From NCBI GenBank assembly GCA_910580135.1, contig CAJTXC010000001.1, positions 2,425-66,424 on the forward strand: a DNA stretch of 64,000 nt, written 5' to 3'. Position 1 is the stretch's first letter. Each line of letters begins with the position of its first letter. The position numbers and the translations under genes were made by a program. The stretch is from an uncultured Bacilli bacterium (lineage in GTDB: Bacteria; Bacillota_I; Bacilli_A; RF39; UBA660). Under the pieces are notes generated by a model. The model did not search any database. It had not been told where the DNA came from and saw only the letters and a list, made by a program, of their open reading frames with translations. Below are positions 13,866 to 49,900 of the stretch, one piece after another.

Positions 13866-13880
13866 TTAAATAGTTAAGTT

Positions 13881-15164: not shown

Positions 15165-15189
15165 TATTAACATATAAATTTAAATAATA

Positions 15190-16050: not shown

Positions 16051-16062
16051 TTTAAAACTCTG

Positions 16063-16110: not shown

Positions 16111-16116
16111 TTAACT

Positions 16117-16740
16117 ATGGATGAACTACAAGCAGTAAATGATATAGTAAGTAACGCAGTTAAAGATTCTTCCTATACTACAGTTTTAATTTCAAGTAGT
16201 GTTTTTATTTTATATACTCTTATAATTAAAATTGTAGATTATTACAAATCTAAAGACAAACATAAGCCATTACTTGAAATGGCGTCTGCTATAAAAGATG
16301 TTAGTGAAAATGTAGTTAAACTCAATCAAGTCTTAGACAAGACTATTCAAGATGTTGAACAAAAAGAATATGATAGAATAGCTAATGTTATTGTTGTATC
16401 GTTTCTTAGTTTTAAATCTGCTATATTAGACCAATGTATAGATACGATTATACACAATAATATTAATGCTAACAAAGATAATATTACTCAAAATATTTAT
16501 AAAACAGTAAGTACTGAGTATTATAAACTTTATTCTATCTTTTCAGCTTACGAACATGATTCGATTAGTGTAGCTACTAAAATAAAAGAAAATTGGATAG
16601 ATGACGTAACTGACGAATGTATAGCCGTAATGTATAACGGCAGTGATGCCCTTACACGAATAAGACAACTTAACCATAAACTTGGACTTATTTCTGAAGA
16701 GTATTCTATATATCTTAAAAATAAAATTCTAAATCATTAA
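16117..16740 (+). CDS. hypothetical protein with N-terminal TM segment (207 aa)
   Basis: ATG ORF with a TTVLISSSVFILYTLIIKIV hydrophobic helix. Confidence 0.55.
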   Translation: MDELQAVNDIVSNAVKDSSYTTVLISSSVFILYTLIIKIVDYYKSKDKHKPLLEMASAIKDVSENVVKLNQVLDKTIQDVEQKEYDRIANVIVVSFLSFKSAILDQCIDTIIHNNINANKDNITQNIYKTVSTEYYKLYSIFSAYEHDSISVATKIKENWIDDVTDECIAVMYNGSDALTRIRQLNHKLGLISEEYSIYLKNKILNH

Positions 16741-16752
16741 TAAGATGTTCTT

Positions 16753-16986
16753 ATGTATGATGATGTAATTAGAAAGAATATACTTGATGACCTTGAGGGC
16801 AAAGTTATGAGTATTGTTAATACTTCTATAGCTTTAGCCTCTCAAGGCTATCTTGTTAATAAAAGTAAGTATATTAGACTTGATTGGTCTAGCTTGCTTC
16901 TTCATGCGTTTGAAAATATAGATGTTCTTAAACCTGAACAACAACATTGTGTAGAACTTCTTTATAATAGACTTTCAACAATATGA
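16753..16986 (+). CDS. hypothetical protein (77 aa)
   Basis: ATG ORF with ATGA overlap to the next gene. Confidence 0.5.
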   Translation: MYDDVIRKNILDDLEGKVMSIVNTSIALASQGYLVNKSKYIRLDWSSLLLHAFENIDVLKPEQQHCVELLYNRLSTI

Positions 16987-17738
16987 GTGAATTAAAACCT
17001 ATTGAACCAGAATATATTTATGTTACAATTCCAGCTGAATATATTTGTGTTTATCATCGTATTCTTGCTATGATGGCTGATTATGGTGAAGAAATGCTTA
17101 AAGATTGTAAAGCTAGTTGTACAGATAAAAATTCTGGTGTGATTGAATGTTTTAATATGTTTAATTCTGCTGTTGCAGCAAGAAAACTTGGAAAAGACAA
17201 ACTTGCTTCAGTTATTATTACATATGTTAAAGCTAAAATCAATCAAATATATAAAGGTAAAGATAATAGTACAAGTTTTGTTTTTCCTGTAGATGAAACA
17301 GGACAACTAAAAGCTTTTGTTAGTTGCGGAGAACGTCCTCGTTTTGAGATTAATGCAGACGATGGAGAACTCTATGAACATAAACTTGGAAACGGTTTTG
17401 ATGAGCATTTTCGTCTTGGTCCTGAAGATGAGTCTAAAGATGATATAAATACTAGCTCCCCCGTAGAAAGTTTGGGGCTTGATATTATTATGACTCCTCG
17501 TTATGAAGAAATAGATGGTGAAATGCGTCCTTGTGCTGATATTACAGTATTGTATAATGGTTATCCTATAAATGTTAATAATACTTCTTATCAGTATTAC
17601 TTTGATGATAAGCCTGTGATTAGGTTTAACGATGTTGTGAACCTTTCTACGGGGGTGCATAATTTCAAAGTTGTTGTTACTTATAATGGTCAAACTAAAA
17701 TAGAAAGTGTAGATAAATATTATGCAGCTACAAATTGA
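16983..17738 (+). CDS. hypothetical protein (251 aa)
   Basis: ATG ORF containing an inverted pair of the iterated motif (17456 and 17646). Confidence 0.55.
   Translation: MSELKPIEPEYIYVTIPAEYICVYHRILAMMADYGEEMLKDCKASCTDKNSGVIECFNMFNSAVAARKLGKDKLASVIITYVKAKINQIYKGKDNSTSFVFPVDETGQLKAFVSCGERPRFEINADDGELYEHKLGNGFDEHFRLGPEDESKDDINTSSPVESLGLDIIMTPRYEEIDGEMRPCADITVLYNGYPINVNNTSYQYYFDDKPVIRFNDVVNLSTGVHNFKVVVTYNGQTKIESVDKYYAATN
17456..17467 (-). repeat. iterated motif, exact (CTCCCCCGTAGA on plus strand)
   Basis: Inside ORF 16983-17738, read as SSPVESL. Confidence 0.9.
17646..17657 (+). repeat. iterated motif, variant TCTACGGGGGTG (1 change)
   Basis: Context gaaccTTTCTACGGGGGTGcat, same ORF, read as LSTGVHN. 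Confidence 0.75.
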
Positions 17739-20310
17739 AAAACTTGGAAAAGTTTCTATTACTGTTGAAGAAGATTATTGGGATATAAATAAAGATTACG
17801 ATAAACTTACAATAGTAGAGAAAGAAGGTACTTTTGGTACTTTTATAAGTCGTAAACCTGTTCCTGCTGGAACTGTTCTTACTGACAGAAAATATTGGAT
17901 TCCGTTTAGTTCTCTTAAAGAAGAAATAATTCTTAATTTTAATAAATGGGTAAGTGATTATGGAGCTTTACTTGGTTCACAAGCTGAAACTCTTAATCAT
18001 ATTCAAGAATTAATTAATAGTATTTATGTACATCTTCCTAATGGAGTTGTCTTTAAAGGAGATGTAGATTCTGTTAGACCTGGATTTGAAAGAGAAATTA
18101 TTCTTGAAGGAAAAACTATTAATGAAGAAAATGCTCAGTTTATTCTTTATAAGAATAATGAAGAAATTTATAGAAATGAAAATAGTAATAATTTTAGCAT
18201 TTCTGATATAGTTAATGAAGATACGGAATATAAACTTGTTACTATTCAAAATGGTTATAAATATATTTCTACTTGGAATGTTGCTGTAGCTCTTCCTCTC
18301 TATGCAGGTGGCGGACAAACGTATCAAGATGCTGTTGGAGATAACAAAATAGTAAAAGTTTCCAATGATATTTCTGGTATTTATTCTATTGTAATAGATA
18401 AAGATGGAGATTATATTTTCTTTGTAGCTCCAAAAGGATATTTAATTAAGTCTATTAAAATGAATGGACTTGACGTTCCTATTAAATCTACAAAAGAAGT
18501 TTATCTTGGAACTGATTATGTTATTTATCAATCAGATTATCAATATAAAGCTGGAACTTATCCTATTCAAATTAATGATTATACTGGTTTGAATGGAGAA
18601 GATTTTCTTGGTATTCTTAATTCTTTAGGAGATACAGCATCTGCTGTAGACGTAGCTAATCTTAAAGAGAGAATTGATAATCTTCCTGTTAATGAACTTA
18701 TAGATAAGGAGTATTCTCCTGCTAAGTTCAGCGGAATGGGACGAGTATATCTTCGTAAGAATATCAAGAATAGTAAGAATATTCTTGAGCAAGATATGAT
18801 GCTTAAGAGTAATACTATTTATATTATTCAATATGATTTTGATGCCGAAGACAAAATAATAAATGTTCCAGATAATAGCATTATTATTATAAAAGCTGAT
18901 ATTACTCATTGTAGTTTTGCTTTATCTGATAATACAACAATATATGGATATGGCAAATCTATATATTGTTCAGAAAATAAATCTGCTATAACAATAAAAG
19001 GGAATAATTGTAAAATATATAATATTAATATTTATAAACATACTAATAATTTTTATGGTATAGAAATAAAAGAAAATTCTAAAAATACTATTATATCTGA
19101 ATGTAATGGTTTTGATTTATCATATACTTTTATATCTAATGATGGTATAAATACTATTATTTCTAAATGTAAAGCATATAACTGTAATTGGGACTGTGTA
19201 AATAATTATAGTAATTCGTATAATGCTATAATAGATAATTGTATAGCAGAACTTTGTGGTAGACATGGATTTTCAACAGATGAAGGTGCAAAGTTTATTA
19301 CATTTAAAAACTGTACTGCTATAAATATAGGAAAAATATTAGGAGAAGGTCATACTTGTTTTCATTTTGAAGGAGCTATAAATTCAACTATTATAAATTG
19401 TAAAGCAGTTTATAATTCTAATCATCCTATATTAACAGATGATATAGATTCTATTTTTATAGGAGCAAGAATAGAAACAGGAACTAATAATAAAATAAAC
19501 GGGTTAAGTATAAATTATGATAACAGTTTTAACGAAATTATATCATTATACCCAATTTATATAAACAATACAGATATAGTTAATATATCTAATTTAGAAA
19601 TAGTAAATGATTCTAATAATAAAAAGTGTTATTTAGGAAAAGCAAATGTGATATTAGATAATATAAAAATATTAGGGTCTATAACATTTGAACAAGCATC
19701 TATTAACGGACTTATTTTATCTATATCCAATTCATATATAGACTTAAAAAATACAAATGACGTATTTTATAATGCTAAATATATAGGAGATAATATACTT
19801 ATAAATAATGTTACCTTATATAATGCTAATGCGTTAGTATCAGGAAGATTTATAAATTCTTTATTTCAAAATTGTGTTATAAAAAATTGTGTTACATCTT
19901 TTATATTAAAACAGCAAGAAGGTAATTCTAATGAAAAAAGTGAAAATAATGTTATAAAAAATAATATTTTTATAAATTTAGTAAATGGTGTAACATTAGG
20001 TTGGAATAGTAAAAATTTTAATAGTATTATAACAAGTAATATCTTTGTAGGACATTTTAGTGCTTTAGTAAATGGAAATAATGATAATGCTATATTTATA
20101 AACAATAATATAGATAAAGCAGAATTCGATGTTTTTGTAAAAGATATAACTTTAGTAAAATATCATGGTACAACAAACAAACGTCCAAATGTTATTAATG
20201 AAATAGGATTTCAATATTTTGATACAACTCTTGGTAAACCTATCTATTGGACAGGAACTAAATGGGTAGATGCTACTGGTTCTGATGTTACTACAACTCA
20301 AACTGAATAA
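17722..20310 (+). CDS. tailspike with right-handed parallel beta-helix (depolymerase-like) core
   Basis: Repetitive N/I/C-rich turns occur (IISECNGF, IISKCKAYNC, IIDNCIAELC, ITFKNCTAIN, IINCKAVYN). The C-terminus GKPIYWTGTKWVDATG is fibre-like. Confidence 0.6.
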   Translation: MQLQIEKLGKVSITVEEDYWDINKDYDKLTIVEKEGTFGTFISRKPVPAGTVLTDRKYWIPFSSLKEEIILNFNKWVSDYGALLGSQAETLNHIQELINSIYVHLPNGVVFKGDVDSVRPGFEREIILEGKTINEENAQFILYKNNEEIYRNENSNNFSISDIVNEDTEYKLVTIQNGYKYISTWNVAVALPLYAGGGQTYQDAVGDNKIVKVSNDISGIYSIVIDKDGDYIFFVAPKGYLIKSIKMNGLDVPIKSTKEVYLGTDYVIYQSDYQYKAGTYPIQINDYTGLNGEDFLGILNSLGDTASAVDVANLKERIDNLPVNELIDKEYSPAKFSGMGRVYLRKNIKNSKNILEQDMMLKSNTIYIIQYDFDAEDKIINVPDNSIIIIKADITHCSFALSDNTTIYGYGKSIYCSENKSAITIKGNNCKIYNINIYKHTNNFYGIEIKENSKNTIISECNGFDLSYTFISNDGINTIISKCKAYNCNWDCVNNYSNSYNAIIDNCIAELCGRHGFSTDEGAKFITFKNCTAINIGKILGEGHTCFHFEGAINSTIINCKAVYNSNHPILTDDIDSIFIGARIETGTNNKINGLSINYDNSFNEIISLYPIYINNTDIVNISNLEIVNDSNNKKCYLGKANVILDNIKILGSITFEQASINGLILSISNSYIDLKNTNDVFYNAKYIGDNILINNVTLYNANALVSGRFINSLFQNCVIKNCVTSFILKQQEGNSNEKSENNVIKNNIFINLVNGVTLGWNSKNFNSIITSNIFVGHFSALVNGNNDNAIFINNNIDKAEFDVFVKDITLVKYHGTTNKRPNVINEIGFQYFDTTLGKPIYWTGTKWVDATGSDVTTTQTE

Positions 20311-20961: not shown

Positions 20962-23900
20962 ATGATTTATAACAAAGGTGAAGAACATATGGATAATCCT
21001 ATTCCTGTAACTGAGGAAAATTTAGGATTTAACACTCCTTGGGAAGGTCATACTTCTAAAGAGATTGAAAGTTATGTATGTTCTGTTTTTGAAAAACTAT
21101 CTGAAAGTTCATCTGCACGATTTACTCTCACTCTTGTAGATGGAAATCTTATTAACTTTGTTGATGGAGTAGATAACATTGTATTCCGATATAAAGTTAA
21201 GTATGCTTCTTCTGAAGAAGTCTTTAATACGTATCGTTTGAGCATTACAGTTAATGGTCAGATTATTCAAGATGGTTATCAGTCTTCTTCTGAAGATGAA
21301 ATTCTAACATCTCCTAATCTTGCTCAGTATCTTAATTCTACAAATGAAAGTACTGTAATAGTTCGTATTCGTGCTTACGATTTGGATGAAAACAATAATG
21401 TAATTGCACAGTCGAGTAATACTATTACATTTAACCGAGTAGTTGGTACACTTGCCCTTCAAGGTATGGTTTTTGGTGCAGTCAATCCTAATGGTATTAG
21501 ATATACTGCTGATTTTGTTCCAACTACTGCTGCTCCTGTAGCTTATCTTAGGTATAAAGTAACTCAACCTGATGGTAGTCTTGTTACATTCACAGACTCT
21601 TCTACGGGGGAGGTAAATAACTATAATGAAATTCCTGTTAGTGCTTCTGGTACTGTAACTGTTCCACTACCAGATAATCTGAGTGATGGTGTTCATACTA
21701 TAACTGCTAAATTAATTGTAGGTAAAACTCAATCTGTTGAAGGTATTTCTACTAACACAATAGTTTACAATTTCCTTACTGTTTCAGATACTGTTGCAGA
21801 TGGAACTCCATTTATTATTGTGGATAGTGTAGATAGTCCTGTTCAGAATGATTATACTCCTGTTAGATATCTTGTTTATATTAAAGGAAAAGAAGCAAGT
21901 TATACTACTCCTCTTCTTTTACAAGATTATTTTAATAATAAGTATAATACTCAAGCTATTAAGAATGTAAAAAATGGAACTATTTATACTTGGAATTATT
22001 TTGTTCCTAATCTTACATCTCTTGGAATGATTACTTGCCAACTCCGTTTTGCTCTTCCTAAAATGCAAAATGGACAAATTGTTTATAATAATAATGGTGA
22101 ACCTCAAATAGACGGTACAGCAGGCACATATAAATCTATTTCTTTTACACCTAAACCAAGTACTATTCCTTGGAATCAAATGGAAGATACATTCCATCTT
22201 TCTGTTAGAAATAAAAGTAATGACGATTATGACGTTGGTACTCTTAAAGATAATGGATATGAAATGGAATTTGAAGATTTCCAATGGAATACTTCTGGTA
22301 GTGGTTATACTCAATTAACTATTGATGGTGTTACATCTAATGTTCTTAAATTTGTAGGTAACAGTAAAGCTACTATTAAAAATTTCTTCCCGTTCTACGA
22401 TACTACTCCTTATAATGCTGCAAATTCTGTAGGTGGTGGTATTCTTGCTACAGGTCGTACTCTTAAGATTAAGTTTGCTGTATCTAATGTTTCTAATGCT
22501 GAAGCTAAAGTTATAGATTGTTATGATGATAGTAATCCTGGTATGGGTTTCTATATTACTGGTAACGGTATGTATCTTAAGTTTGTAGAAGAACTTGTAA
22601 GTAAACCTGAAGAGTATCAAACTGCATCTGGTCATAACGATAGACGTTTTAGTGAAAATAAATGTATTGAACTTTGTATTACTATTCAACCATATTGGGG
22701 TGCTGGTAATATAGAGTCTGCTCATGAAGTTCGATACTATATTAATGGTGAGCTTGCTGGTTTCCGTAAGATTGCTGCTACAACGTCTTTGAGTCAAGTT
22801 GTACCTAAAACTATATCATTTGGAGGTAAAGGTGCTATCTTGTATCTTTATGAAGTTAAATATAAGAATAAATGTATTACTCCTTTTGAAGTTCTTCAAG
22901 AATATGGTATGAGTCAAGATAGTTCTAAGGCTCTTAACAACTTCTATGAAAAGAATAGTTTTTATACTCTTCGCACTAATTCAAATGGGGAAACTTATCC
23001 TGAAATTACTCTTAAGGATGCAATTAACTATGGTAAATATTTAGCAAGCAAAGGAGTAACTGATTTTGCTGTTTTTGTTACTACTAATGATTGTAACGCT
23101 GAACGATATACTGCTAATGGTGGTAAAGCTAACACAAAAGAGTATGCTCAAGATGCTGAATCTTTATATATTTATAGATTCCGTCAAAATGAAAAAGGAG
23201 AAGGTGAAATTGACCCTGATATGACTTTCTATATCGAAGGTCATGATGATAATGAAGAACAAACTTGGTATCTAGGTGAAGAAGATGGTGAAACTAAAGG
23301 CGCTCTTCGTTTTCGCCGTCAAGGTACATCAACAGCTGATGGTACTAAAGGTAATATTCGTTGGGATGTTCGTGCAACTTGTCTTCTTCATAAGTTTAAT
23401 CCTGCTACTCAGAGATTCTTTGATGAATATACTAAGATTAAGAAAAAATGGGAAGGATTTTATATTCCTGATAAAAATGCTATTCCTTGTTTCCTTGTAA
23501 CAGCTAAAAAGAATGTTAATGAGTCTACTCATACTCGTAACGTTCCTACAGCTAAATGGTTTGAAGCTTGTTCTCGTGCTCTTGCTAAAGCAGATGAGAA
23601 ATATGAGGATATTCTTACTCCTCCTCAAAGGGCTGAATTAAAGAGTATTCAAACTGCTTATCCTAGTCTTAGTCGTTCACAGCAGATTGACAGAATTAAG
23701 ACTCGTCAAGTTATTGACGGTATTACTTCTTTAGGATTTAGAATTCAATATTCTAAAGACGCTGCTGGTAAATATCTTCCTGTTACTGACCCAACTCTTT
23801 CTACTCTTGAATGTGAATTTATAGGTCAATATGATTTGACTACTGATAAAAAGAATATGAAAATATTTGGTTTTGGTGGTCATATTGAACATAATTCAGA

Positions 23901-25827
23901 CGGTAGTTTTGATTGGGTTAAAGATACAGACGATGAAGATTTCTCTTTAGAGTATGGTAATAATACCAATCCTCTGTCTTCTTTTAAGAGTCAAAACTGG
24001 GGAACAGCTGCTGCTCGTAATGATTTTGAATATAGGTATCCTGAAGATATAGATACAATTCCTGGTCTTGGAGCTTCAAGTACTGAAACTCCTAGTATCG
24101 GACTTGAACTTGATGGTCCTATGCAAGCTCTTTATGATTTTGTTGCTACTTGTGACCCTAATAAAGAAGAAGGTATTTATTATAGGAATGGTGGTAAATA
24201 TACTGGTCAACTTCCTTTCTTAAATGGTGGACAAAATCTAATTGACCCATTTACTAAAAATCCTATTAGTCTTGGAAGTTCAGCAGATGATACTGTTGCT
24301 AACCGTAAGATTAAATTTTATAATGAACTTAAATATTACGGAGTAGTTAATCAACTTCTTATTTATTATATTGGAACTGTAGATACTCCTCTTGGTGTTG
24401 ACCAAGAAGCTAAGAATATCTTTATGGGTCGATATGGTGATAGAAAACTTTCAAGTGGAGAAATAGTTGCTGGTGATGTTATTCAAGTTAGTAATAATAT
24501 AAATAAGCTTCTTCGTATTCTTGGTTACGACTATGATACTAACTGGCGACTTGATAATAATAATAACTTTAAGTTCCTTTATACAGTTCTTTATCAAGAC
24601 CATCTTTATGATGCTGGTGGTTCTGTTCTTTGGGATTTAATCAGAGAATGCTTTGCTACTGAGATTGCTGAAATGAAGAGTCGTCTTTATGGTACTCTAC
24701 TTTCTAAATCAGTAATTAACAATAACGGAGATATAACGAATGGTGTTCTTTATTATCTATTTACTAAACATATAGATAATTATAACTCTATTCAATATAA
24801 TGCTAACTCTGAATTCTGTTATACTTCCAAAGCAAGTGATTATCCTAAATCTCACGGTTCAGCTCGTGAAGATATTGAATGGTTTGTAGATGGTCGTCTG
24901 AGATTTGTATCTGGTCTTGATTTTAATCCTGATAAAAACAGTAATGATACAAGTTCAGACTTTGGTAAAGGACGTTTCTATGGAACTCCTACTCTGCCTG
25001 CTAACCTTGATGACGGTAATTACTACAATATGTTAGGATATACTAAAGATGAAATTGGTTCTAATGGTAGTCCTATAACTCCTGTAGTTAGTAAAGAAAA
25101 TAGATTTGCTGTTACTGTAACTGCATATGAACGTACTAATTTGGCATTTGCTAAAGGTCGTCCTGCAAGTACATTTAATAGTGTATTTATTAATGTAACT
25201 CCTACTGTAGTAAACGGTATTATAACAGGTTACACTCGTCCTGAAGTCACTCTTAAAGCTAAAGAATTTTATAATCCTGGCATTTCTGATGCTGCTGTTT
25301 ATCTTCATGGTTGTAAACAAATTAAGACTATTGTAGGTCTTGAGAAATGGTATCTTGAAACTATTAACTCTTGGGGTGATTTAACTAATGTTGAAGAACT
25401 TAATCTTGGTAGTCTTGATGAAATTACTCTTCCTGATGGTACAAAAGCAGCTTACAAAAATCCGAATTTAACTTCGCTTAACTTGGTTGCTGACGGAAAA
25501 CCTGTTATATTTGGGTCTTGTAAAAAGCTAAATCTTGCAGGTATTTCTAATATGACTCAAGTATCTCTTCTTGAATTTCCAGTTCTTGAAGTATTTGAAG
25601 GTCGTAATATGCCTGGTACTTCTGAAGTTGTACATCCTGTAGGAAATAGTCTTAGTGAAGCAAATTATGGAGATGGTCTTACTAAATGGGAAATAAGTAA
25701 TAAGCCAAATCTTGAAATTATTACTTTCCAAAGTATAGATGATATAAATACAATCAGTGTTACTCAATCTTCACAAACTGCTTCTGTTAAAGCAATTAAT
25801 ATGCTTATAGAACTTGTTAATAATTAA
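20962..25827 (+). CDS. very large tail fibre/host-interaction protein (1621 aa) with LamG/ConA-like and LRR-like regions
   Basis: GRTLKIKFAVSN...GMGFYITGNGMYLKF...YYINGELAGF resembles a LamG jelly-roll. The C-terminal LTNVEELNLGSL...NPNLTSLNL...CKKLNLAGISNM resembles leucine-rich repeats. Confidence 0.5.
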   Translation: MIYNKGEEHMDNPIPVTEENLGFNTPWEGHTSKEIESYVCSVFEKLSESSSARFTLTLVDGNLINFVDGVDNIVFRYKVKYASSEEVFNTYRLSITVNGQIIQDGYQSSSEDEILTSPNLAQYLNSTNESTVIVRIRAYDLDENNNVIAQSSNTITFNRVVGTLALQGMVFGAVNPNGIRYTADFVPTTAAPVAYLRYKVTQPDGSLVTFTDSSTGEVNNYNEIPVSASGTVTVPLPDNLSDGVHTITAKLIVGKTQSVEGISTNTIVYNFLTVSDTVADGTPFIIVDSVDSPVQNDYTPVRYLVYIKGKEASYTTPLLLQDYFNNKYNTQAIKNVKNGTIYTWNYFVPNLTSLGMITCQLRFALPKMQNGQIVYNNNGEPQIDGTAGTYKSISFTPKPSTIPWNQMEDTFHLSVRNKSNDDYDVGTLKDNGYEMEFEDFQWNTSGSGYTQLTIDGVTSNVLKFVGNSKATIKNFFPFYDTTPYNAANSVGGGILATGRTLKIKFAVSNVSNAEAKVIDCYDDSNPGMGFYITGNGMYLKFVEELVSKPEEYQTASGHNDRRFSENKCIELCITIQPYWGAGNIESAHEVRYYINGELAGFRKIAATTSLSQVVPKTISFGGKGAILYLYEVKYKNKCITPFEVLQEYGMSQDSSKALNNFYEKNSFYTLRTNSNGETYPEITLKDAINYGKYLASKGVTDFAVFVTTNDCNAERYTANGGKANTKEYAQDAESLYIYRFRQNEKGEGEIDPDMTFYIEGHDDNEEQTWYLGEEDGETKGALRFRRQGTSTADGTKGNIRWDVRATCLLHKFNPATQRFFDEYTKIKKKWEGFYIPDKNAIPCFLVTAKKNVNESTHTRNVPTAKWFEACSRALAKADEKYEDILTPPQRAELKSIQTAYPSLSRSQQIDRIKTRQVIDGITSLGFRIQYSKDAAGKYLPVTDPTLSTLECEFIGQYDLTTDKKNMKIFGFGGHIEHNSDGSFDWVKDTDDEDFSLEYGNNTNPLSSFKSQNWGTAAARNDFEYRYPEDIDTIPGLGASSTETPSIGLELDGPMQALYDFVATCDPNKEEGIYYRNGGKYTGQLPFLNGGQNLIDPFTKNPISLGSSADDTVANRKIKFYNELKYYGVVNQLLIYYIGTVDTPLGVDQEAKNIFMGRYGDRKLSSGEIVAGDVIQVSNNINKLLRILGYDYDTNWRLDNNNNFKFLYTVLYQDHLYDAGGSVLWDLIRECFATEIAEMKSRLYGTLLSKSVINNNGDITNGVLYYLFTKHIDNYNSIQYNANSEFCYTSKASDYPKSHGSAREDIEWFVDGRLRFVSGLDFNPDKNSNDTSSDFGKGRFYGTPTLPANLDDGNYYNMLGYTKDEIGSNGSPITPVVSKENRFAVTVTAYERTNLAFAKGRPASTFNSVFINVTPTVVNGIITGYTRPEVTLKAKEFYNPGISDAAVYLHGCKQIKTIVGLEKWYLETINSWGDLTNVEELNLGSLDEITLPDGTKAAYKNPNLTSLNLVADGKPVIFGSCKKLNLAGISNMTQVSLLEFPVLEVFEGRNMPGTSEVVHPVGNSLSEANYGDGLTKWEISNKPNLEIITFQSIDDINTISVTQSSQTASVKAINMLIELVNN
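21601..21612 (+). repeat. iterated motif, exact TCTACGGGGGAG
   Basis: Context gactcTTCTACGGGGGAGGTAAAT, inside ORF 20962-25827, read as SSTGEVN. Confidence 0.9.
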
Positions 25828-33407: not shown

Positions 33408-33830
33408 ATGAAAAGAGATAGTCTTGATATATACGACGATATGCCTGAAGATATGAAACATTATCTTCGTTATAATGGTAGGCATTTTAATAGAAAACTA
33501 TGTGATTTTGCAATAAGTCAAATGTCATCTACCAACCCTTCTACGGGGGAGGTGGTTCATGTAGTTAAACTTGATAAAGAAGCTGTAGATGCTCTTCTTA
33601 AAACATATCGAATTGAAATTAAGAATAATCAACTTTATGATTATGTATATGTTGCAAATATGTGTAAAGCTGATTTTCTTGGTAGAAGTGTACCTGATGA
33701 ACAACATCTCTGTTTATATATTAAAGATGTGATAGATGATGTAGACGGTTATGATGGTCTTGTGTTTAATCGTTGGTATGCTGATATGTGTAGAAGTGGT
33801 GTTGCAATAGATTGGGAAGCGATGTTATAA
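33408..33830 (+). CDS. hypothetical protein (140 aa)
   Basis: ATG ORF containing the motif copy at 33540. Confidence 0.55.
   Translation: MKRDSLDIYDDMPEDMKHYLRYNGRHFNRKLCDFAISQMSSTNPSTGEVVHVVKLDKEAVDALLKTYRIEIKNNQLYDYVYVANMCKADFLGRSVPDEQHLCLYIKDVIDDVDGYDGLVFNRWYADMCRSGVAIDWEAML
33540..33551 (+). repeat. iterated motif, exact TCTACGGGGGAG
   Basis: The full form AACCCTTCTACGGGGGAGGTGGTT spans 33534-33557, inside ORF 33408-33830, read as NPSTGEVV. Confidence 0.9.
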
Positions 33831-33908: not shown

Positions 33909-33960
33909 ATATGATTATAAAGATGATGTAGATAATAGAAAAGTTAAAAATATATAAAAA

Positions 33961-33992
33961 TTTGGCTTATTTGAGAATTTTTTATAAGTTTG
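33961..33992 (+). promoter_or_regulatory. Bacteroides-type promoter (-33 TTTG, -7 TAAGTTTG)
   Basis: TTTG at 33961-33964 and TAnnTTTG at 33985-33992 with a 20-nt spacer, 43 nt upstream of ATG 34035. Confidence 0.55.
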
Positions 33993-34034
33993 TCAATAAT
34001 AATAAGAGATATATTAAAAGTAAAGCTAATCATA

Positions 34035-34352
34035 ATGGAAGAAGCAATATCTACAATAGTTAATAACACAATAAATAGTTTTGACTTTCCTTTTTGTATT
34101 ACAGTAAATATAGCTACTTATATTACAATTAAGACTATTACTGATTATAAAAAGAAAAGTAAAGTTAGTACTTGGAATAAACGTCTTATATTTCTTATTA
34201 TAAGTGCTATTATTTCTACTATTTATTGTCTTACAGGAAGTGATATTAAAACAATCTTTAATAGTTTTATTCTTGCTCCTGTGTCTTGGTCTTGGATATT
34301 CAAACCTATATGTGATAAACTTAATATTGGTTATAACGCTAAACTTAATTAA
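34035..34352 (+). CDS. small membrane protein (about 105 aa)
   Basis: The track start 33990 is TTG inside the -7 box, so ATG 34035 (MEEAIST) is preferred. It has two to three hydrophobic helices and a very AT-rich codon set. Confidence 0.5.
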   Translation: MEEAISTIVNNTINSFDFPFCITVNIATYITIKTITDYKKKSKVSTWNKRLIFLIISAIISTIYCLTGSDIKTIFNSFILAPVSWSWIFKPICDKLNIGYNAKLN

Positions 34353-34499
34353 AATATTAATGTTAAGTTATTCCATATATTTTTATTCGGTTTCAGCCAG
34401 TCTAATTTAATAGTGATTAAGACATTAGACAATAATACAAAATGGAAATTAGGCTATCCCCTGCGCGTCAGAGAGCCTATCACATATTAAATAAATGCG

Positions 34500-34511
34500 C
34501 TCCCCCGTAGA
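34500..34511 (-). repeat. iterated motif, exact (CTCCCCCGTAGA), intergenic
   Basis: Context gcgCTCCCCCGTAGAAAGGTTGtg. A partner half-site CGGGGGAG lies at 34587-34594. Confidence 0.9.
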
Positions 34512-34594
34512 AAGGTTGTGAAACTTAATTGTTATTATTAAGGTGTTAGTATAATAATTAGTAAGTGTACTATTAATCAACCTAATCGGGGGAG
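34500..34594. other. intergenic imperfect inverted repeat / candidate structured RNA containing the iterated motif
   Basis: CTCCCCCG (34500-34507) pairs with CGGGGGAG (34587-34594). AGGTTG (34513-34518) pairs with CAACCT (34578-34583). An inner stem is cttaat/attaag. Confidence 0.45.
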
Positions 34595-34625
34595 TGTTCT
34601 TAATAATAAAATCAATAGTAAATGT

Positions 34626-35168
34626 ATGAATAAATTTAATTTTGGAGTAGGAACTCCAACAAAAGGAATTATAGATAGTTCTTTTGTTCCTATAAAATAT
34701 AATAATAATTATAAAATAAATAATAAAGGAGTCATAATAAATAAGAATAATATTGTTTGTAAACCTTTTGTTAATAATAGTGGTTATTATTGTATTGGAC
34801 TATGGGAAAACAATGTCAAAACTACTTATTGTGTTCATAAACTTGTTGCTGAACATTTTATGAATAATTACGATGATAGTTTAGATATAGACCATATAGA
34901 TAATAATAAATTAAATAATGATATAAATAATTTACAATTAATAACTCATAGAGAAAATTGTAAGAAAAGACTAACTCCAAATATTTATAATGTTACTTTT
35001 GAAGGAAATATTATAAAACAATATAAATCAATAAGAGAAGCAGCAAACGATTTACATATAGGATATAACGGTTTAAGAGAATTACTTTCTAATATTAATG
35101 ATGAAAGTGTTATAATTAAAGTTTATAGTAAAATAAATAAAACTTATTTATATTTTAAGAGATATTAA
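34626..35168 (+). CDS. HNH homing endonuclease (free-standing)
   Basis: The order NUMOD4-like N-terminus, YCVHKLVAEHF, DIDHIDNNKLNNDINNLQLITHRENC (H-N-H), then the C-terminal SIREAANDLHI helix-turn-helix module is typical of phage HNH_3-type endonucleases. Composition is extremely AT-rich. Confidence 0.7.
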   Translation: MNKFNFGVGTPTKGIIDSSFVPIKYNNNYKINNKGVIINKNNIVCKPFVNNSGYYCIGLWENNVKTTYCVHKLVAEHFMNNYDDSLDIDHIDNNKLNNDINNLQLITHRENCKKRLTPNIYNVTFEGNIIKQYKSIREAANDLHIGYNGLRELLSNINDESVIIKVYSKINKTYLYFKRY

Positions 35169-40500: not shown

Positions 40501-41973
40501 GTTGAAACATATAAAACTTATTATAATAATACTTCAGAGCAAACTACAGATAATTCTACTCCTACAGGAAGTGTAGTTCTTAGACTTTTTAAGAGTCTTA
40601 TGATGAGTTCTACTTATATGCTTCCTGCAATGTATAAAACTTATACAAAGAAAACTTATAGTATTTATAGAAGAAATGAAGTTACAGAATTTAATAATAC
40701 TATTCGAGCAAGTAAACTTGAAGGTGACGAATCTTCTATAAATATTTATAAATTTGAACCAAATGACTATTATAATGTGCCAACTAATAGAGGTTTAATT
40801 ATTAATCTCATATCAGTTGGTGATGCTATTTTAGTTCATACAGAAGATAGTATGTTTAGATTTTCTGGTAGTAATACAATTCAATCTTCTGATGGTGAAA
40901 TTCAACCTGCTGAAAATAATGTATTTGACACAGGTGTTTCTGAAGTTTTTGGTAGTGATTTTGGTTTTGCCGGACTTCAATATAAAACAGACCATATAGT
41001 TACTGAAAATGGCTATATCTTCTTTGATAGAGATTCTCGTATAGTTTATATGTATTCTGGTCAAGGTCAAATTGTCAAACTTAGCGATTCTATTGAAAAA
41101 CTTTTTAGACATAGACCTATTGAAAGTATTAGATTTGCTAATGATTATTATAATAATCGTTTCTTTATGTCTATTTTGTTTTATGAAGACTATACTGCTA
41201 CTGAGAACGGTAAGCCTGTAATTAAACAAAGATATTATCCTGTTACTCTTTCATTTAATATTACAGAAAACGTTAGGTCTTTTGTTAGTCTACATGATTT
41301 TTATTATGGTTATGCTTTTAATACTAAGACTAAATGCTATTTCTTAGCAGATGATATGCAAGATATTTGTACTATAGATAAAGAATATAAAGGCTGTTAT
41401 AGTAAACTTGAACTTTATAACGATAAACTTTATCTACAAAAAAGAGAAACGCAGATAATTAAGTTAGTAGATACAGATACTGCTGGAGCAGCTATTGTTA
41501 ATTATATTATTAAATTATATGATTCTATATTAGATATTATAGATAACAATAATTACGAAACAGTTAAAACATTAAATTCAATAAATTGGTGTGGAAATAA
41601 AGTAACTTCTGAATTTAGAGATATAGCTCAAAATAATGAAGTTACTCTCAATATGGTTGAAGAAGTAAATGATGTAGTTCCTTGTAAATACATAAGAATT
41701 TATTCTGATACTTGTATGAGCAATCTTTTACCTTGTACTTCAAGGTCTAATGATAAATCTATTTCTGCATTAGACTACACTAAATATCCTTTTTATAATC
41801 AAGGTACTTGGACTTTTAATTATTTTAGGAATATTCTTAATTCTAAAAATAATAAAACAAGATATTCTGGAGATAATAATAGTCTTATAGAAGGTAAATA
41901 TTTTGTAGTAAGATTTGTTTTCGATAGTGATTTTAAACTTGAAACTTTATATTTAAATTATAACGCAAAATGA
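37510..41973 (+). CDS. very large tail-associated protein (1487 aa), function unknown
   Basis: Long ATG ORF in the tail module with ATGA overlap to the next gene. Confidence 0.6.
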   Translation: MAQIIPKLNLNKTPSIIESNSLVFAKNIRLDIDGSIHKDYGVFPMSIHKGKNTDNLVNYKTILNRIISDIEESTKGTETPEDYILLSYVHLQWISGKEIKDEDNNVIASKGTHKIVGIISNSNEFYIFINGNCVRGTDSNGKDITEVYNFIICYDEKEDRFYPCNCNWNWSGGTITGCVINNLLGEKILNIGEKDATTLVPLKCINLNTSTIGDDERIYTQTSNIPITNLNFIGSFNYVIPNGVYQFFVRYKIRDNFYTDWFPASKELFAGNKNINNTSFGTVKFVNTHRDSDNSFKFSVEHLFINQKYNYQSFQIGFIISHDDAIMARAWKHFDFNVNTINFDYNARDAYEIEVIDLLKSAYQLYDVGNITSFKNRLYIANYKETDFNEDLQDKANEIRIEITDQSATSGYDGYPIIERTLNGKTVIAGLKIGEEELSFSGSNGIIDKLLRLKNNYNDESVKDAIIDAIGSNSSNGYRCGAKQWSIQISGNKQSLTGAQNQFRYSHSGNDYSGFIFQIAIQNIKVGGSYINTFTIDAILSAIYSKTRYLNESCIFINNSGAEDYQVDIEIIRKCSYTHKHWVPNGMKPYDPSLGDDYIDVNPGGDNLGRPSDTIIGGSGGHYEYTTVNSTYTQTISLRLWGDRSKYKSTDSNLLLGYTTLIPYQKYKFYIHYVKQNGEITNGYYCNGRTGGIKTVPYKSAVDSVIFPKFTNINLPKGYVACFFSIVHVENTVATVYDINTDNTYGEASCMDINVGLMPGSDNMTIKQGFTSASGGIGDIGGVIINPDFPIIKDPIITASENNEEEQSDITPTLPPISTTQTEIKTNSAKYYYSSDTSNIRYFGADGIIQFDKDSNIVSGKVAYLVNDYTISDAEDTQLTKCTPFINPLTLSKENNVTVYSSFDNMNLLGFICAINPLHRERTIKYYTDGSSVYLKKNIEEAEDGTGAYFSLVELKNHLLDASTYDEKLTALSIINTDIEYIYSNYNLNYMGLNEDPVETYKTYYNNTSEQTTDNSTPTGSVVLRLFKSLMMSSTYMLPAMYKTYTKKTYSIYRRNEVTEFNNTIRASKLEGDESSINIYKFEPNDYYNVPTNRGLIINLISVGDAILVHTEDSMFRFSGSNTIQSSDGEIQPAENNVFDTGVSEVFGSDFGFAGLQYKTDHIVTENGYIFFDRDSRIVYMYSGQGQIVKLSDSIEKLFRHRPIESIRFANDYYNNRFFMSILFYEDYTATENGKPVIKQRYYPVTLSFNITENVRSFVSLHDFYYGYAFNTKTKCYFLADDMQDICTIDKEYKGCYSKLELYNDKLYLQKRETQIIKLVDTDTAGAAIVNYIIKLYDSILDIIDNNNYETVKTLNSINWCGNKVTSEFRDIAQNNEVTLNMVEEVNDVVPCKYIRIYSDTCMSNLLPCTSRSNDKSISALDYTKYPFYNQGTWTFNYFRNILNSKNNKTRYSGDNNSLIEGKYFVVRFVFDSDFKLETLYLNYNAK

Positions 41974-43847
41974 GTAGAATAAGACTTAAAGATGATGGTA
42001 AGCCTCGTCATAAAGCTTTATTTGGTGCAGATGGTGCTGTGATGGCTGCTGCTACATTAGCTGCTGCTGGTATTACTGCTGGTGCTACAGCTGCTGCTGC
42101 TAAATCTCAAGCTAAAGCTATGGTAGAAAATGCTAAAACTCAAGCACAATCTATAAAAGACCAAACTACTAATAGTAATAATCTTCAAAAAGAACAACTT
42201 GCTTTTACTCGTTCTCAAAATCAAGAGAACAGACAACAACAGCAAGATATTCAAACTACTCTTCAGCTTATGGCTGGACAAGAGAATATGAATGATAGAA
42301 TGGAACGTAATAAAATGCAAGTTAGACTTGGTGGTAAACCTAAACGTAGAACTATCACTGCACCTTTCTACGGGGGAGGTCAATTCCAAGTAACTGATGG
42401 TGGTGGAGTTATTCCACTTTCTGTTACACCTGACGGTTATGGTCTTTATGAGCTTTATGGTAATGACCACGAACATTATCATAAAACTTCTGGTGGAAAG
42501 AACAAAACCGGTGTTGGAATTAAATTCAATGACGGTTCTGTTGTAGAAGGAGAAGGCAACCAAAATACTAATCAAGGTGAACTTCTTTATGTTACTCCTA
42601 ATGATGCTATGTTTATTTCAAAACATAGCATTGGTGGTTTTAATCCTACTCAAGCAGTTATGAGTGGTGTTCATCCTGAACAAGCTTTTGCTATTCAAGA
42701 AACACTTAAAGATGAAAAAGGACTTAATGATGATGGTAGTAAATCTAAACGCCGTAGTCTTAAACGTATGCTTGGTGGTCCAACTCAATATCCTGAACAA
42801 GTTAATATGACACAAAATCCTAATAACGGTACAGGTTCTGTTGCAGGTGGTGTCATATATGGTATAAATAATTCAACCACCTCCCCCGTAGAAAAGCTAA
42901 AATATAACAATGCTATTGCTAAACATGGTGGTCGTATTCATCTTAAATGTGGTGGTAGACGTAAAGCTGCTTGGGGTGATTATGCTGGAGCAACTTATAA
43001 TGCAGCAGGTAATCTTCTTGGTGCTGGTATTTCTACTTGGGGAAATATGTGGGCTTCTAATAGACTTGGTAAAGCATATAATGAAGCTGGTAATATTCTT
43101 GCAGATGCTTATTCTCAAATGCATGGTATTGATATGAGTGAACTCAAAATGGAAGATTATGCTGCTCCTCATACTTTAGCTGTTGTTAGAGATGCAAATA
43201 ATATAAGTTATGACCCACAAAGAGAACGTATTCATCGTAATTCTGCTTCTGAACGTAGAGAAATAAATCGTGGAACTTTAAGTTCTGCTGCTCGTCAGCA
43301 AAGACTTGCTGCTACTAATGATAGAATGTTCCAACGTATTAGTGAAGTAGATGCTACAGAAAATAATGCAAGAGAATCTATACGACAAGGTAATGCTGAA
43401 CGTATAACTCAAACTGCTCAAGCTAATGCAGATAGAGATGTTCAAGCTCGTAGAGATTTTGGTAATCAAAGACTTTCACTTCTTCAATATAATAATAATA
43501 TTGAAAATGCTAAGATAGCGGGTATGGCTCAAGCTCGTGCTGATGCGCTTACTCAGTCTTCTATGGCTCATGCACAAGGTATGCAAGCAAGTATGTCTGC
43601 TATTGGTTCAGGACTTGCTAATTCAGGTCAAGGCTTTGCTTCTGCTTTTGATGCTGCAAGAAAAGAAAAAACAGATTTTACTAATACTTATATAGGATTA
43701 GGAGATATAGATAAAGTAAATGCTGCTATTCTTAGATATAAGCAAACAGGAGACAAATCTTTTATAAATAGTTTATTAGCTGGTAATACAATAAGTGACG
43801 AAGCTAGAGCTAAATTACAAGATACACTAACTAAAAAGAAAAGTTAA
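41970..43847 (+). CDS. putative internal/ejection protein (625 aa), Ala-rich hydrophobic N-terminus, Q/N-rich
   Basis: The N-terminal segment is ALFGADGAVMAAATLAAAGITAGATAAAA. It contains an inverted motif pair (42367 and 42881). Confidence 0.4.
   Translation: MSRIRLKDDGKPRHKALFGADGAVMAAATLAAAGITAGATAAAAKSQAKAMVENAKTQAQSIKDQTTNSNNLQKEQLAFTRSQNQENRQQQQDIQTTLQLMAGQENMNDRMERNKMQVRLGGKPKRRTITAPFYGGGQFQVTDGGGVIPLSVTPDGYGLYELYGNDHEHYHKTSGGKNKTGVGIKFNDGSVVEGEGNQNTNQGELLYVTPNDAMFISKHSIGGFNPTQAVMSGVHPEQAFAIQETLKDEKGLNDDGSKSKRRSLKRMLGGPTQYPEQVNMTQNPNNGTGSVAGGVIYGINNSTTSPVEKLKYNNAIAKHGGRIHLKCGGRRKAAWGDYAGATYNAAGNLLGAGISTWGNMWASNRLGKAYNEAGNILADAYSQMHGIDMSELKMEDYAAPHTLAVVRDANNISYDPQRERIHRNSASERREINRGTLSSAARQQRLAATNDRMFQRISEVDATENNARESIRQGNAERITQTAQANADRDVQARRDFGNQRLSLLQYNNNIENAKIAGMAQARADALTQSSMAHAQGMQASMSAIGSGLANSGQGFASAFDAARKEKTDFTNTYIGLGDIDKVNAAILRYKQTGDKSFINSLLAGNTISDEARAKLQDTLTKKKS
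42367..42378 (+). repeat. iterated motif, exact TCTACGGGGGAG
   Basis: Context caccTTTCTACGGGGGAGGTcaa, inside ORF 41970-43847, read in a different frame as PFYGGGQ. Confidence 0.9.
42881..42892 (-). repeat. iterated motif, exact (CTCCCCCGTAGA)
   Basis: Context CAACCACCTCCCCCGTAGAAAA, same ORF, read as STTSPVEK. Confidence 0.9.
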
Positions 43848-46928: not shown

Positions 46929-49900
46929 ATGGATATTCAAGCTATTTTTAATGCAGGAGGAACTGTTATTAAAAATCCTAATTATAAAAAAAGAAAAAAG
47001 AATACTCAACCAGAGTATATAACAGTTTCTGATTTAGATTCAGGAATTGCTCCTGATGGAAGTATTGTAGCAGATATAGCGTACAAAGCTGCTGCAAGTG
47101 GAAATCAAGATATATTAGGAAGAAATGGAGAATTAGATAAATATATAGAACATGGTCTTACTCCAAATGGTTGGGAAGATTTAGATGTTCAACTTGCAGA
47201 ACAACAAGGTAATTGGACTAAATTAGGTAACGCTCTTGCTCAAACTCTTGTATCTGAATTAGCTCTTGGAACAGTTAAAGGTTTCAGTGATTTAGGAGAT
47301 TTAATAGGACAAGCTGTTGGACTAAGTGACGGTGATTATTCAAATCCTGTTAGTCAATATCTTGAAGAAAAACAAGAAGAATTTCGTAATTTTGCTCCTA
47401 TATATACAAGACCTGGTGTTAACATAAGTAATGGAGGATTACTTGATGCAGGTTGGTGGACTAGTAATATACCAAGTATTATTAGTTCATTAACTCTTCT
47501 TATTCCAAGTACTGGTATTACAAAAGGTTTATCAGCTATAGGAAAAGCAGCTAATGTAGGTGCTCGTACAAGAAACGCTATACGTGCTGTTAGTGGTGTT
47601 AATCGTAAAATGGTACAAGCTGAACGTCTTAGAGAAGCAGGCAGAACTACTGAAGAAATTGCTGAACTTACTAGACTTAATGGAGTTCAAAAGTTTCTAA
47701 CAAGTGCTAGTACAGCTAAACAAACTTCTCTTTTCTTAGAAAATGCTACAACTGCTGCTCTTAGTAGAGCAATGGAGAATTATCAAGAAGCTCGTCAAAC
47801 ATATAATGATATGTACGCTGAAGCTTCAGAATATCTTAAAGATGATAATAATTATCAGACATTTCTTCAGCAAAATAGTGAATCTCTTAGGCAAGCAGGT
47901 GTTGATGTAAATGATAGAGATGCTGTAGCTAAATATATTTCTTCTTCTGCTGCCGATAGAACCTTTCAAACTGACTGGTTTAATGTTAGTTGGGATGTTA
48001 TTCAAATGTATGGTCTTAGAAATGCTTGGAAAGGACTTAGAAATGCTAAAGATACTCCTTCTGCTGTAAGACGTGCTGAATTAGATGCTCGTAAATATTT
48101 TGGTAAAAAGCCTGAAGAAATAGCTAAACTTAAAGCTCAACGTTCTTTTGGTGAAAAAGCACGAGAATGGGCTAGTGATAGACTTTATGGTTCTAAACTT
48201 ATTGTTGGTTTTGAATTAAGTGAAGGTGCTGAAGAAGCACTTAACTATATTGCTACAGAAGAAGGTATGCGATTTGGTCGTGTTCTTCTTGGAACAGAAC
48301 AAGGAGAAAATAAAGGTGTATGGAGTAACATACTTAATGGATTTGATGGTCGTTTGAAATCTTATCTTCAAGCTCCAGAACTTTATGATGCTGCTTTTTG
48401 GGGTGTTCTTGGTGGTGTAGTTTTTCAAGCTGGTGGTAGTTTTATTAATCGTGTAGGTCAAAAGTTTAATAAATCTGAAGCTGACAAAAATGCTGCAAGT
48501 AAACTCCCGTGGTATCAACTTGACCAACTTCCTGAAAATCAAAGACGTATAGCAGAAATAGAAGCTCGTTCTACTGATTTTGCTAATTACAAATCTCAAC
48601 TTGATAAAATTAATCAAGGAATTGATGTTTATAATTCTACAGAGAATAATGAAGTAAGATTTAATTCTGAAGAAGAAGCTAATGTAGCAAGAGAGAAACT
48701 TAAAGATGAATTTATTGCTAGTATGACTCTTCGTGCAATGAATTCTGGTAATTATGATATGCTTAAAGCTTTTCTTCAAGATGAAAATGTTCGTAAAAAT
48801 TTAATTGAAAGTGGTGTTTTTGGACATGAAAGTGAAAATGGTAAAACATCTGCTGAAATAGAACAAGAAGCTAAAGAATACGTTGATTCTGCTGTTAGAC
48901 GTATGGATGAAATTGCTGATATGTATGAGCAAGAACTTACAGCAGTCGATTACGCTTCTTCTCGTATTGGCAAAGATATGTTAGCCGAATATATGCAAAT
49001 TATAGCTAACAATAATGTTAATACACAACTTGCTCTTAGACAAAATCAACTTTCACTTGCAGGAACTAATGCTAGAATTGCTCAATTAGAAGAACAATTT
49101 AGAGATAATCTTGACCCTAGTATTAATCATGCAAATAATATTAAAGTAGGTCTTATTTCTTCTGAATTAGGTAAACTTTATGCTGAGAAAAAGAAACTTA
49201 CTGAACAGCCTAATAGTCTTAGCAAAACTATAGCACTCGAAAACATTAATAAAAAGATTGAAACTCTTGAAAATGAACTTTCAGATAGTGAACTTGTTTT
49301 TGCTACTTCTTTAGCTCTTCGTTATGTAAAGAAAGAAGATGGTTCTTATGCACAAGAAGATACTGAAGATTATTTTAGATACAGAGATAATCAAATAATT
49401 AATCATACAGAAGATAATGTAGGTTTAACTTTTGACGATACTTTAATAAGTGTTGGACTTTCTCGTCGTGCTAGAACTGTTCTTAGTGATGTAGCAATGC
49501 AAGAATATAAAGTTCTTGAACAAGATGCTGGTAGTAGTTTTGCTACTCTTCGTCAAATTAGTCCAGAACTTAACGATTTGTATGCTGTTCGTGCTGCTAC
49601 AGAATTATCTTCTAAAATGCTTAATTCTGAACTTGTTCGCACTGTAGATGAAGTAAGAGATTATTCTGCTATGCTTCATAATACAATGAGTGAAGCACGT
49701 ATTACTGCAATTGAACAATCCAATAAAACTATACTTGATTTATATAAGAAATATGGTAGAGATATTGAGTTCTATGTAACTGATGATTATAGCAGTAAAA
49801 ATGAAGTACTTAGAAAACTTTCTGAAAGTGAACGTAAAAATCTTGATGATGCTCTTAAAGTTTTAGCACTTACTAAATCTTATAATCGTTCTCTTGGTTT

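Follow-up and report, generated by a model that had tools for sequence, protein, structure and literature searches.

The window, a 64,000-nt stretch of contig CAJTXC010000001.1 analysed over its whole length, is DNA of a crAss-like phage with ~30% G+C, in which one asymmetric word of 16-24 bases recurs at about one site per 4 kb, both strands counted. Among GenBank entries it is closest to Wotdevirus murinus MH552500 and Hacihdavirus cr271_1 (Crassvirales, Intestiviridae, Obtuvirinae); its major capsid protein shares 94.5% and 89% identity with theirs, respectively, and the window belongs to the Obtuvirinae crAss-like phages. All long open reading frames (ORFs) of the window are on the plus strand; the ORF from 53946 extends past the window end and exceeds 3,351 codons.

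When TCTACGGGGGAG was searched with at most one mismatch, 14 matches were obtained in the window, against 0.01 expected from shuffled sequences. The 8-nt core TACGGGGG is present in 15 copies, starting at 1089, 4185, 10168, 17648, 21603, 33542, 42369, 50588 and 56667 on the plus strand and at 3994, 17458, 34502, 42883, 52825 and 59632 on the minus strand, and the window consensus is (A)ACCYTTCTACGGGGGAG[GT/CT]. Apart from this word, no 9-mer is grossly over-represented in the window, in MH552500 or in cr271_1. An earlier note, made from the window sequence alone, had listed 13 copies; all 13 were found where it placed them, and two intergenic copies that it had missed (1087-1098, plus strand, and 34500-34511, minus strand) were added. 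The copies are as follows.

1087-1098 (hairpin 1087-1123), plus strand: intergenic copy TCTACGGGGGAG, 12 nt past the stop codon of ORF 500-1075
3992-4003, minus strand: variant TCTACGGGGGGT, antisense in ORF 3867-4157, read PPVE
4177-4200, plus strand: long form AACCTTTCTACGGGGGAGGTAGTT, sense in ORF 4081-4461, read NLSTGEVV
10166-10177, plus strand: motif copy in an N-terminal linker rich in Asn/Asp, sense in ORF 9953-11236, read STGE
17456-17467, minus strand: motif copy, antisense in ORF 16983-17738, read SPVE
17646-17657, plus strand: variant TCTACGGGGGTG, sense in ORF 16983-17738, read STGV
21601-21612, plus strand: motif copy, sense in ORF 20962-25827, read STGE
33534-33557, plus strand: long form AACCCTTCTACGGGGGAGGTGGTT, the copy flagged by the earlier note, sense in ORF 33408-33830, read NPSTGEVV
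34500-34511, minus strand: intergenic copy between ORFs 33990-34352 and 34626-35168, conserved in MH552500
42367-42378, plus strand: motif copy, sense in ORF 41970-43847, read FYGG
42881-42892, minus strand: motif copy, antisense in ORF 41970-43847, read SPVE
50581-50604, plus strand: long form AACCCTTCTACGGGGGAGGTAGTT, sense in giant ORF 46929-53894, read NPSTGEVV
52823-52834, minus strand: motif copy, antisense in ORF 46929-53894, read SPVE
56665-56676, plus strand: variant TTTACGGGGGAG, sense in the ORF from 53946, read LYGG
59630-59641, minus strand: variant CCTACGGGGGAG, antisense in the ORF from 53946, read SPVG

The word is read in three frames, as had been proposed: six of the sense copies in the window encode STGE or STGV and two (F/L)YGG, and all five antisense coding copies are read as SPVE, SPVG or PPVE, the remaining antisense frame being one that would hold a TAG. 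The 24-nt forms described at 33534-33557, 50581-50604 and 4177-4200 are present. The codons that had been thought rare are so: only 1.8% of Thr codons are ACG, 2.5% of Gly codons GGG and 2.8% of Pro codons CCC, and motifs hold 6 of the 25 ACG, 8 of the 31 GGG and 6 of the 16 CCC codons of the window. The linker-like setting is borne out as well, for example in the N-terminal linker at 10166 and at 3992, where the copy is located in a linker following a predicted membrane helix. The intergenic copy at 1087-1098 is the 5' arm of a 16-bp imperfect hairpin with three G.T/G.U pairs, of which the partner arm is a degenerate inverted copy; this hairpin (1087-1123) is the best terminator-like match in window positions 1-20000, and the copy is the only terminator-like one. 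The word is placed where proteins tolerate it, in linkers and preferred frames, and in intergenic hairpins.

Conservation, gain and loss of sites

The 50 residues on either side of each site were compared with related loci. The window and MH552500 have 13 sites in common, at which identity is 90% over the 16-nt motif and 64% over the 80 nt of flank on each side. The word stands at the same position in orthologues with just 35-60% identity nearby, where the surrounding linkers differ in both sequence and length, and p-crAssphage shares sites 52823 and 4183 at 24% and 22% protein identity. In the orthologue of site 42367 at one related locus (L054) the DNA word CTACGGGGGAGC was kept and the frame changed, giving FLRGS instead of FYGGG. 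Copies also occur on the antisense strand and in intergenic DNA. In keeping with what the earlier note had suggested, these alignments indicate that selection targets the nucleic acid and not the peptide, because synonymous positions are invariant amid diverging flanks, the word is read in three frames, and antisense and intergenic copies exist.

The residue positions of sites 4183 and 52823 are occupied in MH552500, cr271_1 and p-crAssphage, with the cr8_1 site 8 residues off in each case. Site 10166 is kept in position in MH552500, cr271_1 and crAss002 and site 59630 in MH552500, cr271_1 and cr8_1; site 56665 has a counterpart, shifted by 0 or 1 residue, in every one of the other five Intestiviridae genomes, which each use their own version of the word. 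For site 21601 the orthologous region was not found among the relatives examined. Several window sites are therefore at the same residue in other subfamilies, three subfamilies being represented, each in the version of its own genome, and it follows that the sites are old and that the word changed in place and in concert.

The flagged copy at 33534-33557 is kept in MH552500 and survives in cr271_1 as the decayed remnant tcttctacaggagta. Other lost sites are likewise point-mutated remnants still in place: site 17456 in MH552500 and site 42881, which reads acctcgcctgtaaaagg in the same genome. Further near-copies of the remnant type are TCTACAGGGGAG and TCTATGGGGGTG. Motif-free orthologues align without gaps at 17646, 33540 and 10166; at the motif-free locus L025 the counterpart of 17646 is ttaactactggtgtt, read LTTGV, and the site at 17646 therefore arose via substitution. 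Other motif-free orthologues have ragged linker indels of 9, 11 or 15 residues, and no clean 8-codon gap was found at motif sites among the motif-free orthologues examined. The alignments indicate that new sites arise, and old sites decay, by point substitution.

These results bear on the proposal that the word is a mobile module of 24 nt that inserts in frame into coding regions, as a small-scale counterpart of Rickettsia palindromic elements or of the GC clusters of yeast mitochondria. Like those repeats, it lies inside ORFs with the frame intact and, like the GC clusters, it is a GC-rich island in an AT-rich genome; it is always compatible with an open frame, three copies have the 24-nt, 8-codon form in common, and in p-crAssphage and crAss002 some copies precede GC-rich hairpin cassettes of 20-35 nt, some of which seem to be translated in frame. 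It differs from them in being ten times shorter, in having neither insertion polymorphism nor a palindrome, and in occupying ancient sites that are orthologous across subfamilies. The empty-site comparison that the earlier note had called for yielded gap-free alignments or ragged indels and no fixed-length presence/absence indels, losses are point-mutated remnants, and the even spacing per strand described below would not be expected from insertions. The complementary ends AACC...GGTT do appear in the sequence logo, at positions only 50-80% conserved, and showed no covariation as a stem across 89 distinct copies; nor was there any pairing excess over expectation in the flanks beyond the conserved block, and the hairpin is weak. 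The module reading is thus largely refuted, and we consider it scarcely credible. A hairpin of variable stem with the motif in its loop, an idea that came from loci L024, L025 and L026, was also discarded, since flank pairing in the 89 copies is at expectation.

Dialects in relatives and arrangement of sites

A scan of viral contigs with the 15-mer returned several matches each in many contigs of 88-94 kb and 28-33% G+C. The word is the outstanding over-represented 9-mer in complete genomes, and all six Intestiviridae genomes examined carry it in a genus-specific version. The versions are listed below; ranges in copy number reflect the search pattern used.

Window (64 kb), Obtuvirinae: 15 copies, CTTCTACGGGGGAG[GT/CT]
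MH552500, Wotdevirus: 18 copies, version as in the window
cr271_1, Hacihdavirus: 17 copies, version as in the window, mostly AGCT
p-crAssphage BK010471, Carjivirus: 31-32 copies, tCCATCCTC[T/C]ACGGGG[A/G]GT
crAss002 (cultured), Jahgtovirus: 29 copies, CTCCT[T/C]TA[C/T]GGGGGAA
cr8_1, Fohxhuevirus: 24-27 copies, cATaCCTTTTACGGGG[C/G]GGCT
crAss001 (cultured), Steigviridae: 27 copies with ~2 expected, yCTTCTGGAG

In crAss001 (MH675552, positions 1-100000) the 27 copies are of a shorter word, CTTCTGGAG, which has the pyrimidine tract and the GGAG end in common with the others and looks like a simpler relative of the window motif. The copies of MH552500 and cr271_1 extend into the replication module, where genes are on the other strand. 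In crAss002 the word carries 31 bits of information, and in the five genomes of Obtuvirinae and Crudevirinae it carries ~40 bits, which greatly exceeds what it would take to single out 30 sites among 100 kb of phage DNA, or even within the genome of a host.

Over six genomes, 61 sites are sense, 40 antisense and 34 intergenic. About 75% of sites are within ORFs, deep and far from gene starts, ~40% of the coding copies are antisense, and intergenic DNA is over-used. The 3:2 ratio of sense to antisense copies is the one predicted from the numbers of stop-free frames, and orientation is therefore unrelated to transcription. Sites are spaced at about one per 5-8 kb per strand, and the coefficient of variation (CV) of the gaps within one orientation is 0.31-0.51, against ~0.9 for random placement, in 10 of the 12 genome-strand sets; the exceptions are the six minus-strand sites each of MH552500 (CV 0.74) and cr271_1 (CV 0.70), which are no more even than random. 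For the window the gap CV is 0.38 on the plus strand (P = 0.006) and 0.33 on the minus strand (P = 0.025). Orientation changes along the genomes 95 times versus 66.8 expected (z = 5.1), with 24 changes out of 29 in crAss002 (P = 0.0008). In crAss001, where the orientation string is +--+--+-+--+--+--+--+-+-+--, there are 19 changes versus 12.6 expected (P = 0.003), and minus-strand spacing is even (CV 0.46, P = 0.001). Minus sites are roughly uniform inside plus intervals, and inverted pairs less than 200 bp apart number 11 versus ~4 expected; the window has two close inverted pairs of 190 bp, 17456/17646 and the divergent pair 3992/4183. We take these two independent, strand-specific and regularly spaced sets of sites to be the mark of a polar signal that serves a process running along one strand. 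Composition near the sites, with a slight purine excess 20-60 nt upstream, decides nothing.

Some copies are followed by trailing cassettes of 20-35 nt that are GC-rich, form a short hairpin and often contain GCGAAGC, after which the downstream consensus resumes. They were seen in p-crAssphage at 6026, 28075, 28177, 44951, 58725, 93665 and 95869 (L193/L194) and in crAss002 at 4214, 47844, 64740, 86211 and 89652 (L191/L192); no GCGAAGC mini-hairpin cassette is present in the window. The sequences suggest that some cassettes are inside giant ORFs and translated in frame, and the cassettes may represent a small insertion of a separate kind, directed at the motif.

Readings of the word

The exact 15-mer was searched in 185,579 bacterial and archaeal species genomes, one genome for each species, and gave single hits in unrelated taxa, as by chance. 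The exceptions were low-GC contigs of a 'Candidatus Coprovivens sp.' metagenome-assembled genome (L081, L110 and L122; JAZOOK010000154.1, JAZOOK010000082.1), which are 26-29% G+C with 2-3 motif copies per 8 kb and are most likely mis-binned crAss-like phage. In 12 Bacteroidota loci (87 kb) no core copies were found beyond the copy by which each had been selected, the true hosts being outside the sample. A signal of the host genome, such as Chi or an uptake sequence, is accordingly not seen: no bacterial genome sampled is enriched in the 15-mer, and none of the sampled Bacteroidota DNA in the 8-nt core.

No description of the word was found among 8 million papers by exact motif strings or keywords, and the feature is apparently undescribed so far. 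Many of the literature string matches are mistyped 16S primers; the word resembles the universal 16S rRNA segment CTCCTACGGGAGG (~338-350, the 341F primer site and a UACG-loop hairpin), a likeness that is probably coincidence. The paper on the RNA polymerase of phi14:2 reports sigma-70-like middle promoters and no early motif (10.1101/2020.03.07.982082), and the word is unlike those middle promoters. The crAss001 transcriptome paper makes no mention of such a motif. Placement upstream of genes and in line with them, as for a promoter of a phage RNA polymerase or of the host, is not observed given the mixture of sense, antisense and intergenic sites. Promoters of T7-group RNA polymerases are comparable in being ~20 nt long, asymmetric and near-invariant within a genome, in ~17-30 copies, with excess information and with versions that co-evolve with the enzyme between related phages; they differ in that those of T7 are intergenic and all aligned with the genes, whereas 75% of the sites of the phage word are in ORFs and 40% of these are antisense.

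On comparative sequence evidence the word is a genome-wide, strand-specific and presumably cis-acting DNA signal of Intestiviridae crAss-like phages, and we infer that a factor encoded by the phage, and co-evolving with the word, reads it with polarity. The mechanism that we tentatively favour is a private Chi-like self-tag, because it would explain both orientations everywhere, regular coverage of each strand and close opposite pairs, together with the dialects between genera and an over-specific word that is unlikely to occur in host or competitor DNA. Under this mechanism a phage-encoded factor would act along one DNA strand and read the word polarly; a helicase-nuclease or recombination machine entering from any end or break would meet a correctly oriented site within a few kb, would there halt degradation and would pass into recombination-dependent replication, and host and competitor DNA without the 40-bit word would not be spared. 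Candidate machinery is annotated in these genomes, namely RecT, a PD-(D/E)XK exonuclease (by family match), a RecD-like helicase and Gam-like proteins. The likeness to the Chi sites of RecBCD and AddAB lies in a polar, G-rich, over-represented word that marks self DNA for a strand-tracking enzyme, in a density of ~1 per 4-5 kb similar to that of Chi in E. coli, and in the need for both orientations against breaks from either side. It is possible, if doubtful, that the Intestiviridae, and crAss001 in simpler form, carry in this way a private, genus-specific polar DNA code, with a 40-bit word set regularly along each strand, by which a phage-encoded machine would tell self from host or competitor DNA.

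Several points weigh against a Chi-like tag. Known Chi sites are 5-8 nt long, are read by host enzymes and are enriched in host chromosomes, whereas the phage word has 16-20 nt, is specific to phage and genus and has no known cognate enzyme; no bacterial genome with multiple 15-mers was found that would make it a host-enriched site of RecBCD or AddAB, the true hosts again being outside the sample. To our knowledge there is no precedent for a scanning helicase that reads a word of 16-20 nt, and asymmetric sites of such length are found more typically with polymerases, nickases and site-specific binders. The analysis did not turn up a trans-acting factor. The distribution is patchy, a comparable word being absent from cr6_1 (Suoliviridae) and from the first 50 kb of phi14:2. 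The patterns for the spacing tests were picked after the top words of each genome had been viewed, and an early merging of close pairs was post hoc.

The closest rival to the Chi-like reading is that the sites are strand-specific start sites, at which a phage primase, a primer-making RNA polymerase or a nicking endonuclease begins synthesis or nicks; this would give each strand regular initiation points and confine replication by the phage to its own DNA. Even spacing per strand and independence from transcription suit it as well as they suit the Chi-like reading, a 40-bit asymmetric site is typical of T7-type polymerases and I-HmuI-type HNH nickases, and the conserved middle of the word consists of a pyrimidine tract and, after it, CTA, TTA or CTG, trinucleotides that DnaG-type primases prefer. 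A DnaG-family primase and a DNA ligase are encoded by all these phages, and dispersed nick sites with a conserved asymmetric consensus, a property shared by the word, are known in phages T5, tf and phiKMV. Against this stand several observations: DnaG-type primases are not known to require sites of 16-20 nt, Okazaki fragments would be expected at shorter intervals than the 5-8 kb seen per strand, the enriched opposite-strand pairs within 200 bp would be risky for nicks, and a single bidirectional origin would entail one orientation switch and not alternation. A conserved nicking HNH gene at the ligase gene was sought and dismissed, as cr271_1 encodes an I-HmuI-like NUMOD4-HNH-NUMOD1 protein at that place, the HNH_3 matches of cr8_1 and crAss002 are weak and below threshold, and MH552500 and p-crAssphage have none. 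We regard start sites as improbable yet deserving serious consideration. It is unlikely that the word is the dispersed binding site of a monomeric sequence-specific DNA-binding protein, be it a global regulator or roadblock on the model of the stoperators of cluster A mycobacteriophages and the C1 operators of phage P1, or an IHF/HU-like organiser of the packaged genome. Some 15-30 asymmetric sites per 90-100 kb do resemble the P1 C1 operators and L5 stoperators (15-36 dispersed asymmetric sites of 13-17 bp, bound by one phage protein), IHF/HU-like proteins are encoded in the structural module of these phages, and genus-specific versions would suit co-evolution with a binding protein. Stoperators and C1 operators, however, track promoters and the direction of transcription in lysogenic repression, whereas the crAss-like sites ignore gene direction, ~75% being deep in ORFs, and show no link of orientation or position to promoters and transcription; we do not know the crAss-like phages of this set to be temperate. 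A double-strand binder also gives no reason for even spacing per orientation, and IHF-like genes are found throughout the Crassvirales, which the motif is not.

Molecular drive, in which packaging initiation or biased recombination during co-infection prefers word-bearing DNA and the word builds up by mutation and biased transmission without need to benefit the phage, would make the word an analogue of the DNA uptake sequences (DUS) of Neisseria and the uptake signal sequences (USS) of Pasteurellaceae. The parallels are extensive: a short, asymmetric, hugely over-represented word in both orientations, spaced more evenly than random and lying within coding DNA, in favoured frames and at residues of low conservation (PMC2817400), with inverted pairs as terminator-like hairpins, origin by point substitution and lineage-specific dialects around a conserved core (PMC3630211). 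The differences are that the phage word is in a lytic phage and not in a naturally competent bacterium, that it has no uptake machinery, that it is confined to phage genomes (the hits in the bacterial genomes sampled being chance singletons), that host genomes seem to be free of it, and that it is 3-5 times sparser (~1 site per 3-6 kb versus ~1 per 1 kb for USS) and, at ~40 bits, about twice as informative. No uptake-like step is known in a lytic podovirus, and very old sites at identical residues across subfamilies point to site-by-site purifying selection and not to turnover under drive; we consider this explanation quite improbable. Less probable again, and by our estimate very unlikely, is an RNA-level hairpin (pyrimidine tract, UACG loop, G tract and G.U pairs) acting in transcript stability, processing or termination. 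The motif strand can fold with a C-G pair closing UACG, at a mean folding energy of -6.9 kcal/mol versus -3.1 for the complement and -5.2 for shuffles, and the intergenic 16-bp hairpin at 1087-1123 is terminator-like with G.U pairs. The gain over shuffles is, however, less than one standard deviation, for ~40% of coding copies the only long ORF runs antisense to the motif, so that the mRNA would lack the hairpin strand, and pairing is not kept in the versions of other genera. As evidence for an intrinsic terminator or structured RNA there is only the one terminator-like copy, with no covariation in the flanks and no Rfam family match at motif sites.

The word is present in p-crAssphage, often called the most abundant human gut virus, as in all the Intestiviridae genomes examined, and it costs the phage rare codons and fixed peptides in ~15-30 proteins. 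This cost, together with sites at the same residue across subfamilies and the concerted change of the word, implies an important unrecognised process, which probably lies in replication, recombination or DNA self-recognition. We count the word among the genome-wide polar signature sequences, such as Chi and the uptake sequences; there is a fair chance, though, that it is new in kind. If it is a private code for self-recognition, it would be what Chi or uptake sequences are in bacteria, in a virus, and its dialects would keep gut phages apart during co-infection. Its function is directly testable, as the cultured crAss002 and crAss001 carry their own versions. The word is also a sharp genus-level marker for metagenomic crAss-like contigs and exposes phage contigs mis-binned in bacterial metagenome-assembled genomes.

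Further features of the window

ORFs 3867-4157 and 4081-4461 are small and overlapping and have the look of a spanin-type pair, with a membrane helix in one and a lipoprotein-like signal in the other. Each has a motif copy in the linker right after its hydrophobic segment, in opposite orientations and 190 bp apart, and this arrangement is conserved in several related loci. The 270-nt intergenic region at 34353-34625 holds, besides the minus-strand copy at 34500-34511, a degenerate plus-strand copy ATCGGGGGAG at 34585-34594, 75 nt downstream, with which it could pair as CTCCCCCG/CGGGGGAG; no Rfam match was obtained in this region, and its counterpart in MH552500 (70528-72355) is unannotated.

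Window positions 3-75 on the minus strand match RF04319, the Bacteroidetes FopS small RNA family, above the gathering score (60.5 bits, E = 2e-6), and no RF04319 match was found in the first 50 kb of MH552500, cr271_1 or p-crAssphage. An AT-rich inverted repeat of 32 nt with 91% complementarity is formed by positions 284-315 and 33933-33964, its arms 33.6 kb apart. Both arms appear to be intergenic and end in ...AAAATTTG, which we take to resemble the Bacteroidetes -7 promoter box, and they may be promoters on opposite strands.

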